Below are positions 15,039 to 16,689 of a stretch of 61,870 nucleotides of DNA, piece after piece. Source of the stretch: Candidatus Helarchaeota archaeon (GTDB lineage Archaea > Asgardarchaeota > Lokiarchaeia > Helarchaeales > RDOG01); NCBI GenBank assembly GCA_029838215.1, contig JALGVI010000008.1, positions 1 to 61,870 of the forward strand, given 5' to 3'. The notes below the pieces were generated by a model. That model made no database searches. It was not told the origin of the DNA and saw only the letters and a list, made by a program, of their open reading frames with translations. Made by a program: the position numbers and the translations under genes. Position 1 is the first letter of the stretch, and each line of letters starts with the position of its first letter.

Positions 15039-15797
15039 TCATTCATTTTCTAATGGTTTCCCGCATTGCGTGCAAAATCTAAAAGCTGGATCCACGGGAT
15101 TGCCGCACTCGCACGTGATTCTTTGACCGCATTCCGTACAAAAATTGATTCCTTCCCGAATCGGTGATTCACATTGAGGGCAGATTTTTGGGAATTCTTC
15201 TACAATTTCGGAAGGAATTTCTGAGGTTGGTTTTTCCAATCGAGTTCCACAGGTCATGCAAAATTGTGAGTCTTTGATGACAACCATCGAATTGCATTTT
15301 GGGCATTTTAGGAAACTGCCGCAATTGTCACAGATATTCGGTGCTTGACCTGATGAAATTTCTAATTTGGCATCGCAAAAAGGACATCGCGTTATTGTTT
15401 CGGGTTTTTTCTCTAGTGTTTTTGTTTCTCCTCCAATAATGGTTCTCATGACGTCTATGGGAACAACTTTTAGTCGTCGTCGCTTGCAGTCATTGCACAA
15501 GTATTTTAATTTCACGTGAATGGTGGAAACTCCCTTATATTTACCATAAAGTCTTAGAGGATCCTCATAAAGCTGGACGTTTGGCGAATTGCATACAAAA
15601 CATCGATTTAAACCCGCTTTCATTTCAGCTATATCGTAATCAAAACTATTCAAGATCTGTTTTGTCTTTTTGTTACAAGCCGGACATTTAAAGACAACAT
15701 GTAATTTATTCCCATAACCCGGTTGTCGTACTTTAAGAATATTTAATGCTTCTGAATTATTACAAAACTTGCATTTTAATGCTGTCGAATACGTCAT
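15039..15797 (-). CDS. Multi zinc-ribbon (double zinc ribbon-type) protein
   Basis: About 12 CxxC-type knuckles (CKFC, CPAC, CFVC, CNDC, CPFC, CDNC, CPKC, CMTC, CPQC, CTEC, CEC, CTQC). Confidence 0.8.
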   Translation of the reverse strand: MTYSTALKCKFCNNSEALNILKVRQPGYGNKLHVVFKCPACNKKTKQILNSFDYDIAEMKAGLNRCFVCNSPNVQLYEDPLRLYGKYKGVSTIHVKLKYLCNDCKRRRLKVVPIDVMRTIIGGETKTLEKKPETITRCPFCDAKLEISSGQAPNICDNCGSFLKCPKCNSMVVIKDSQFCMTCGTRLEKPTSEIPSEIVEEFPKICPQCESPIREGINFCTECGQRITCECGNPVDPAFRFCTQCGKPLENE

Positions 15798-15960
15798 TCA
15801 AATCGTCCTCGAATCCGTTTTAAATTTAATATATCGGTGGTTCTTAAAAAATCTATATTTAATGGAATTTTAATTCAAGTTTCGAAAATTTATATATTAG
15901 GAAACGTCATTTTAAATTGAAGTTCTGGAAAATTCACTCAAAGAGATGGTGATTTGAAAT

Positions 15961-16689
15961 TTGGTGACTGAATTACGAGTAGTTTTGGATCCCAAGGCAA
16001 ATGAAACAATGAAAAAACACATGTATCGTTACGCGGGTTCAAGTTTGCCTGAAGATCAGTGGCGGGAAGCCATGGGTGTTTTTATAGGGTATACAAAGAA
16101 GAAAGTGATCTATGTATCTCGTGCGATTCCACTCGTGCATGGAACGGACGTGGATTTTGAATTTGGACCAAAAGAACTCGTCACTTTCGATAAGATAGAT
16201 CGTCGTGCTCAGGAACGAGGGCTCATCATTCAGGGTTGGTATCATTCCCATCCCGGGATCGGCATTTTTTTATCTCCCGATGACATGAAAAACCATTTGG
16301 TATATACCACCTTTAATCCAACTGCCATTGCGCTTGTTTTTGATCATACCGAGCATCGAGAACCTGTCAGTCCCGGTTTTAAGATTTTCATCACTCCTGA
16401 ACCCGGTAGTATTTCTGCTTATGAAGAAGTACCTTTCGAAATTGCAAGCGTAAAAATCAAGAAAAAGAAGATTAAGGGAGAGCCGCCTGATCCGTTTTTC
16501 TTTTTAGAAGAATTTTTAACGGAATTGGATGCCATTACCAAAACGAAACCATCCATTGCCGTGAAAGACCTTGCGGATTTGTTGGGACTGGACGTGGACT
16601 CCGTAAATACGCTTATACTGGAAGCAATTAAGGATAAATCGTTACCCGGAACCCTGGAAAAAGACGTTCTTTTATTTAATAAGACTTAA
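15961..16689 (+). CDS. JAMM/MPN+ metallo-isopeptidase with C-terminal PCI-like winged helix
   Basis: EAMGVFIG and GWYHSHPGIGIFLSPDD (HxH-x7-S-x2-D); C-terminal SIAVKDLADLLGLDVDSVNTLILEAIKDKSLPGTL. Confidence 0.85.
   Translation: MVTELRVVLDPKANETMKKHMYRYAGSSLPEDQWREAMGVFIGYTKKKVIYVSRAIPLVHGTDVDFEFGPKELVTFDKIDRRAQERGLIIQGWYHSHPGIGIFLSPDDMKNHLVYTTFNPTAIALVFDHTEHREPVSPGFKIFITPEPGSISAYEEVPFEIASVKIKKKKIKGEPPDPFFFLEEFLTELDAITKTKPSIAVKDLADLLGLDVDSVNTLILEAIKDKSLPGTLEKDVLLFNKT

Follow-up and report, generated by a model that had tools for sequence, protein, structure and literature searches.

To our knowledge, eukaryotes always place the protease domain (MPN) and the scaffold domain (PCI) in separate subunits, and how the architecture of the proteasome lid, the COP9 signalosome (CSN), and eIF3 originated is an open question. 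Among the described systems, the solved relative that is closest by sequence to the protein considered here is CsRpn11, which is monomeric and cleaves ubiquitin precursor as well as conjugates without a lid (PMC6043591). The gene in question lies in a stretch of 61,870 nucleotides from a Candidatus Helarchaeota archaeon. It occupies positions 15961 to 16689 on the forward strand, encodes 242 amino acids (P0001) from a TTG start to a stop codon at 16687 to 16689, and joins an MPN+ isopeptidase domain through a linker to a winged helix (WH); it is referred to as MPN-WH. On balance, we think it probable that the product is a soluble CsRpn11-type isopeptidase for ubiquitin or ubiquitin-like modifiers, docked to a protein partner or to another WH via an acidic WH of the PCI/DDRGK class. 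The enzyme kind is known, whereas the architecture of this short form is new; it is a rare, lineage-specific paralog, not a demonstrable forerunner of the lid, COP9, or eIF3.

The sequence-only reading had described the catalytic motif as intact and similar to that of Rpn11 and CSN5, and this description held throughout. The motif GWYHSHPGIGIFLSPDD comprises residues 92 to 108 (16234 to 16284). It includes the zinc-binding motif H95-S-H97-x7-S105-x2-D108 (16243 to 16284, forward strand), which could be read directly from the sequence. Together with E36, the general-base glutamate (codon at 16066 to 16068, forward strand), GWYHSHPGIGIFLSPDD completes the JAMM signature E..HxHx7Sx2D. In an alignment of 67 homologs, H95, H97, and D108 were invariant and S105 and E36 nearly so; the JAMM positions were also invariant or nearly so in a 14-sequence alignment, and the near invariance of E36 applied to the homolog alignments A1 and A3. 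The JAB family of Pfam (PF01398) matched residues 6 to 120 with 38.3 bits (E value of 1.3e-9) against a cut-off of 22.5. A search of the PDB returned CsRpn11 (6fjv/6fju) at an E value of 1e-11, followed by plant, yeast, and human Rpn11, CSN5, BRCC36, and AMSH.

The AlphaFold2 model of the whole protein reached a mean predicted local distance difference test score (pLDDT) of 88.3 and a predicted TM-score (pTM) of 0.83. Foldseek comparison of this model kept the order of the PDB sequence matches, with 6fnn as the best hit (E value of 8e-12, TMt of 0.75 to 0.79), and the values for 6fnn and 6fju (E about 1e-11, TMt of 0.69 to 0.79) indicate an MPN fold. The Pfam, PDB, and Foldseek matches support a catalytic domain at residues 1 to 165 (15961 to 16455, forward strand). 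The alignment with CsRpn11 spans residues 23 to 150 with small gaps only, from which it appears that an Ins-1-type loop is present (residues about 60 to 70, pLDDT of 68) and that an insertion of the size of Ins-2 is absent, as in CsRpn11. The assignment of MPN-WH as a JAMM/MPN+ metalloisopeptidase is thus well supported by sequence and model comparisons, and the protein is apparently an active, small ubiquitin-cleaving enzyme of the Rpn11 type.

Downstream of the catalytic domain, a Lys-rich linker that begins with KIKKKKIKGEPPD (residues 166 to 181; 16456 to 16503, forward strand) was modeled with a pLDDT of 60 to 71, suggesting flexibility, and has the same character in the relatives P0003 and P0004. 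It leads into a C-terminal WH (residues 182 to 240; 16504 to 16680, forward strand), whose assignment to the PCI/DDRGK1/UFL1 class draws on AlphaFold2, Pfam, a PDB profile search, Foldseek, VIA, and charge. The model displays a canonical WH of about 60 residues, with helices at 182 to 193, 201 to 208, and 212 to 224 and strands at 198 to 200, 230 to 233, and 236 to 239. Separate modeling of residues 176 to 242 left this topology unchanged (pLDDT of 82.7). The chain ends three residues past the last strand, and the AlphaFold2 model contains no C-terminal helix after the WH that could enter a helical bundle. Nor does any TPR-like helical-repeat subdomain adjoin the WH; a single helix (182 to 193) precedes it, with the disordered linker and the MPN domain upstream. 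As modeled, the tail is a WH subdomain only and not a full PCI domain.

The subtype of this WH was approached by several routes. Only one Pfam family, PCI (PF01399), matched the tail at an E value below 0.01 (5e-4, profile positions 33 to 73 of 84), scoring 17.8 bits over the full-length protein and 20.3 to 20.6 bits for the tail alone, below the gathering cut-off of 22 bits. Among 13 family members, PCI was also the most frequent Pfam match, being the top family in 5 of them (best E value of 6e-5), and one long paralog exceeded the cut-off with 30.3 bits. When the PCI model was run over the whole genome that carries MPN-WH, no match above the cut-off was obtained. It should be noted that the same model matched at E values of 0.1 or less in 6 of 14 well-known prokaryotes used as a control, including E. 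coli and B. subtilis, once above the cut-off; PCI scores below the threshold were therefore not taken as proof. A profile built from the three short-form tails was compared with all PDB sequences and found the PCI WHs of human and yeast eIF3c (E values of 0.03 to 0.07) and nothing else recognizable. The mixed profile A2, which combines short- and long-form WHs, matched DDRGK1/UFL1 (2.8e-4), followed by DtxR, MarR, and Lrp regulators (0.005 to 0.1).

Structure comparison led in the same direction. Almost all of the top 50 Foldseek matches of the WH model in the PDB were WHs of CSN2, CSN3, eIF3, Rpn proteins (including Rpn6), and DDRGK1/UFL1, with TMq of 0.7 to 0.84, root-mean-square deviations (rmsd) of 1.0 to 1.9 Å, and E values of 8e-4 to 2e-2; the nuclear magnetic resonance structures 1wi9 and 1ufm, each annotated as a PCI domain, were among them. 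VIA scored DDRGK1 at 10.4 and both CSN3 and PCID2 at 9.6. Using hhalign, the short-form tail was matched with a probability of 82.7% to a WH repeat from Asgard multi-WH proteins that is itself positive for Pfam PCI, and an ESM Atlas feature search restricted to the WH returned no usable match. In our judgment, PCI-like winged helix is quite probably the best description that profiles and models offer for this tail, and its class is as close to DDRGK1/UFL1 and to the ESCRT-linked multi-WH proteins of Asgard archaea as it is to PCI. Of the PCI winged helix proposed by the sequence-only reading, the canonical WH was borne out and the PCI subtype is quite probable, whereas the Pfam score stayed under the cut-off and the helical-repeat arm and bundle helix of a PCI subunit were missing.

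The open reading frame is clean, with 242 codons from TTG 15961 and 241 from the adjacent GTG 15964. Gene calls differ at its 5' end: P0002 has 241 residues from GTG 15964, and the public annotation P0155 has 222 residues from M21, a start that would remove the strand and helix with which the MPN fold opens (15961 to 16023). Residues 1 to 20, which form this strand and helix, align with all homologs and were modeled with a pLDDT of 85 to 96; because of this alignment and confident modeling, an upstream start, either TTG 15961 or GTG 15964, is judged to be correct, and not M21. The intergenic region on the 5' side measures 163 bp, is clean and divergent, and holds a TATA-like box, TTTATATATTA (15888 to 15899, forward strand), read from the letters and presumed to act as a promoter element. 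It also holds a Shine-Dalgarno-like GGTGAT (15948 to 15953, forward strand) that lies 7 nucleotides before the TTG and 10 before the GTG. In comparison with the 60% identical ortholog P0003, the MPN domain had a pN of 0.21 and a pS of 0.87; the corresponding values of the WH were 0.37 and 0.81. A proper dN/dS ratio was not computable for this pair, as synonymous sites (dS) were saturated. The gene is real and under purifying selection in both domains, with the WH less constrained.

To define the distribution of the fusion, we searched 1.84 billion cluster representatives exhaustively with HMMER and ran a WH profile against 400 genomes sampled across the Asgard phylum. Among the 526 MPN relatives that HMMER recovered, no more than two clusters had the short form, that of MPN-WH itself and P0004 (240 amino acids, 36% identity). 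A word-indexed homolog search found only two near relatives and added P0003 (261 amino acids, 60% identity). The short form comprises three sequence clusters in total and occurs in one of the 400 Asgard genomes. Shape matches of the whole model in the ESM Atlas covered the MPN domain only (residues 1 to 164/178), and the two-domain shape was found in no Atlas cluster of at least 50 members. In the literature on Asgard PCI domains, on Rpn11 with a winged helix, and on JAMM proteins, no description of an MPN-WH fusion was found.

MPN paralogs are numerous in related genomes, with two to eight in each of 41 genomes and eight in the genome of MPN-WH; most of those in the related genomes have 470 to 600 residues with coiled-coil or TPR extensions. 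One class of long paralogs, 483 to 555 residues in length, consists of a TPR region of about 250 residues, an MPN domain, a linker, and one or two WHs, TPR-MPN-WH1(-WH2). The WH profile retrieved this class from the genome of MPN-WH and from all six other genomes of the order Helarchaeales (E values of 1e-16 to 1e-32), and nothing comparable was detected outside Helarchaeales among the 400 genomes. The order was recognized as Helarchaeales because Candidatus Helarchaeota Hel_GB_B of NCBI is among these six. On the question of whether other Asgard genomes carry the fusion, raised by the sequence-only reading, the answer thus differs by form: the short form is confined to a single genome of the sample, whereas the long form is present in that genome and in all six other Helarchaeales genomes of the sample.

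The copy in the same genome (L014:3885-5549:-, contig C82) encodes a TPR-MPN-WH-WH protein of 555 amino acids. A gene for a Ras-family GTPase (L014:5574-6119:-) ends 22 bp before it on the same strand, and a second MPN gene, encoding 330 amino acids, lies on the other strand 1.2 kb from this pair. In another genome (contig C186), the 493-residue TPR-MPN-WH protein L042:675-2153:- scored above the Pfam MIT threshold at its N terminus (32.9 against 30 bits), giving a layout like the MIT plus JAMM arrangement of AMSH, although helices of the MIT and TPR types are readily mistaken for one another.

The relationship of the short to the long form was assessed at the level of both domains. Alignments obtained with phmmer for P0006, P0013, and P0015 reach residues 226 to 228 of the query, and the MPN domain, linker, and WH1 of these proteins are collinear with the short form. 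The short WH matched WH1 in hhalign with a probability of 93.9% (score of 40.8) and WH2 with 44% (24.5), and WH1 and WH2 matched each other with 95% (43.6). In a tree of MPN domains, the three short forms group together with an SH-aLRT of 99; their branch is long, and the TPR-MPN-WH clade does not include them. A joint clade of short and long forms was not rejected by the approximately unbiased (AU) test (P = 0.4). A profile of long-form WH1 retrieved the short WH unspecifically (E value of 0.005, rank 4 in the genome), and the reverse search from the short WH profile to long-form WH1 failed. Given this unspecific retrieval, orthology of the two WHs is not claimed as proven, and a single origin of the MPN-WH junction in both forms is likely, but not proven, from these alignments. 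Most likely, MPN-WH is a rare and fast-evolving relative, devoid of the TPR arm, of a TPR-MPN-WH(-WH) deubiquitinase family found only in Helarchaeales.

We hypothesize that MPN-WH acts as a stand-alone soluble zinc metalloisopeptidase of the archaeal Rpn11-like (CsRpn11-type) MPN+ group, which would remove or mature ubiquitin-like modifiers supplied by the genome's own E1/E2 cassettes. The flexible linker would tether the catalytic domain to one acidic WH, and this WH would serve as a protein-protein docking module that pairs with another WH or a scaffold, or dimerizes, and so brings the protease to its substrates. What the enzyme cleaves, what it binds, and that its WH serves in docking are inferred.

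A different substrate class has to be considered. The enzyme might target modifiers of the SAMP/Urm1/MoaD type, as does the desampylase HvJAMM1, or merely mature the precursor of a ubiquitin-like protein. A weak match to the NCBIfam desampylase model and the eight ThiF-type E1-like genes of this genome, several of which lie outside the ubiquitin cassettes, are compatible with that view, as is the fact that CsRpn11 itself processes ubiquitin precursor (PMC6043591). The desampylase score of 23 bits is, however, far under its 130-bit cut-off, the matches to CsRpn11, Rpn11, and CSN5 are far better, and SAMP precursors are not processed by CsRpn11 (PMC6043591), which leaves this alternative unlikely. 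Very unlikely, in our estimate, is that the tail is an ordinary nucleic-acid-binding winged helix-turn-helix and the protein a DNA-associated protease or regulator, such as an autoregulated or chromatin-targeted JAMM enzyme. WHs of the NiaR, SelB, Z-alpha, and MarR types do come within about 1 to 2 Z units of the PCI WHs in VIA, and the DtxR, MarR, and Lrp matches of profile A2 fit this as well. Yet the WH has an isoelectric point (pI) of 4.29 and no arginine, and its helix 3 (VDSVNTLILEAIK) contains one lysine, a composition that argues against DNA binding. Moreover, PhyR_sigma-like, at an E value of 0.1, was the only DNA-binding helix-turn-helix family that Pfam matched to this tail at 1 or less, compared with 5e-4 for PCI, and the short-form profile matched eIF3c only. 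The WH is probably not a DNA binder.

The proposal of the sequence-only reading that one chain with both domains could be a minimal precursor of the lid, CSN, and eIF3 did not survive the wider comparison. In this scenario, MPN-WH chains would oligomerize into a horseshoe through WH-WH beta-sheet contacts, and the protein would represent or descend from the ancestor of those complexes. The Rpn11/CSN5-like MPN domain, the CSN, eIF3, and Rpn WHs as best matches of the tail, and an Asgard host with ubiquitin machinery of the eukaryotic type all speak for it. It is nevertheless unsupported, because the distribution is narrow (rare short fusion, long form confined to Helarchaeales), defining PCI elements are missing (helical-repeat arm, C-terminal helix for a lid-type bundle), and the WH class, as near to DDRGK1/UFL1 and to the ESCRT-linked multi-WH proteins, is a general Asgard interaction module. 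The missed Pfam cut-off and the lack of the two-domain shape in the larger ESM Atlas clusters add to this, and we regard the scenario as highly improbable. The narrow distribution favors a lineage-specific invention rather than an ancestor. Alternatively, MPN-WH could be a functionless gene in decay, left over from a long TPR-MPN-WH-WH gene after loss of both its ends. This view can draw on the short architecture as a subset of the long one, on its rarity, and on the long branch of its MPN domain. Decay is highly improbable, though, with all catalytic residues kept across three lineages that are 36 to 60% identical, pN well below pS in both domains, a confident AlphaFold2 fold, and promoter-like and Shine-Dalgarno-like signals of its own in a clean upstream region.

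Returning to the docked isopeptidase, the genome offers both modifier systems and possible partners. It contains a ubiquitin-E2-E1 cluster (C112:18436-19884), a ubiquitin-like-E1-E2 cluster (C122:25079-27512), and an E1/E2-like pair (C155:19297-20797). An E2 gene (UQ_con, C161:8783-9223) is located directly upstream of an MPN-coiled-coil (apolipoprotein-like) paralog (C161:9372-9842, L013), whose MPN domain resembles that of MPN-WH more closely than any other in the genome does (45% identity). An E1/E2/RING cascade of Helarchaeota ubiquitinates UEV-Vps23 in vitro (bioRxiv 10.1101/2023.07.25.550441). Candidate partners for the WH in the same genome are a 482-residue protein with several PCI/UFL1/DDRGK-like WHs (L134:466-1911:-, C85; PCI score of 28 bits) and two copies of a DDRGK/PCI-like single-WH protein of about 85 to 91 residues (L132:1474-1728:-, C116, and C141:131-295). 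The 201-residue product of L130:1402-2004:- (C44) was rejected as a small PCI-fold partner, as it combines predicted membrane helices with a WH and has no PDB relative; since hydrophobic, membrane-like helices at its N terminus precede a PCI-like WH (E value of 0.0016), it may be a membrane-anchored WH.

Weaker matches of the WH profile (E values of 1e-6 to 1e-9) were Asgard proteins of 726 to 812 residues with tandem PCI/UFL1/DDRGK-like WHs. Four of these from Lokiarchaeia/Helarchaeales (L026, L043, L030, and L045) matched Pfam PCI (1e-13 to 1e-26), E3_UFM1_ligase, and DDRGK, and all but L045 have a Vps28 C-terminal domain. They belong to the ESCRT-linked HTH/PCI proteins discussed previously (PMC10936438). 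Judged by these profile matches, PCI-type WHs are common in Asgard ESCRT-linked proteins and constitute a general interaction module.

The neighborhood itself is metabolic. Upstream and divergent lies a gene for a multi-zinc-ribbon (DZR) protein of 252 amino acids (15039 to 15797, reverse strand; Pfam DZR, E value of 9e-20), and the other neighbors encode a GFO/IDH/MocA oxidoreductase, a convergent FAD-dependent reductase, an ADP-forming acyl-CoA synthetase-like protein, and a thiolase with its OB-fold partner. An attempt to derive a pathway from these metabolic genes and the zinc-ribbon protein failed. The pair of DZR and MPN-WH genes is kept in the contig of P0003 (L127), where the neighbor is 45% identical; this contig shares the upstream membrane protein, the GFO/IDH/MocA oxidoreductase, and the divergent zinc-ribbon gene. 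The short contig of P0004 has no gene in common with the MPN-WH locus, and its only neighbor, with an HxHxDH-like motif, is unrelated to the convergent gene of that locus. The DZR protein could be a ubiquitin-binding partner, or the pairing could be mere synteny.

In an Asgard lineage, an Rpn11-type protease and a PCI-class WH did become joined in one chain, and MPN-WH is mainly of value as a model for the way in which these archaea target deubiquitinases by means of added modules. With 242 residues, it is a small, tractable test of whether archaeal PCI-type WHs act in protease targeting or in oligomerization, and a handle on which ubiquitin-like system of Helarchaeales is served. We consider it quite unlikely that WH-WH beta-sheet contacts join MPN-WH, the TPR-MPN-WH-WH paralog, and other PCI/DDRGK-like WH proteins of Helarchaeales into a multi-subunit deubiquitinase scaffold. 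If this were true, the scaffold would correspond structurally, through homology or convergence, to the module of PCI horseshoe and MPN in lid, CSN, and eIF3, but with MPN and WH still in one chain.

Set against known systems, MPN-WH resembles CsRpn11 of Caldiarchaeum subterraneum (6FJU/6FJV/6FNN) as a soluble archaeal MPN+ protein with a core of similar size and, it appears, the same pattern of insertions. CsRpn11, however, ends in helices H4/H5 and is encoded in an operon with ubiquitin, E1, E2, and RING genes, whereas MPN-WH ends in a WH and its gene is an orphan beside unrelated genes. Eukaryotic Rpn11 and CSN5 have the JAMM motif and the MPN fold in common with it but possess Ins-2 and C-terminal helices that enter the helical bundle, both absent here, and they pair with an MPN- partner and separate PCI subunits, where MPN-WH has its WH fused in cis. 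The tail superimposes on the PCI WHs of CSN2, CSN3, eIF3c, Rpn6, and PCID2 with an rmsd of 1.2 to 2.0 Å over about 60 to 67 residues and follows the pattern I-x-hxxLaxxLxLxxxxVxxhIxxaIxxxxLxGxL; unlike PCI subunits, it comes without the TPR-like subdomain and trailing helix and scores below the Pfam cut-off. In contrast to the DDRGK1/UFL1 WHs of the UFM1 E3 ligase (8C0D, 8B9X), P0001 has no DDRGK or E3_UFM1_ligase match in Pfam. The TPR-MPN-WH(-WH) proteins, one of them encoded in the same genome, come from the same order, Helarchaeales, and are collinear with it in MPN domain, linker, and WH1, but the short form starts at the MPN domain, without the TPR arm of about 250 residues, a second WH, or an adjacent Ras/Rab-like GTPase gene, and forms a separate, long-branched clade in the MPN tree. 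AMSH/STAMBP (MIT plus JAMM) follows the same principle, in that a small domain for protein interaction directs a JAMM protease to its target; AMSH has an MIT domain at the N terminus for this, through which it binds ESCRT-III, and MPN-WH has a WH at the C terminus.
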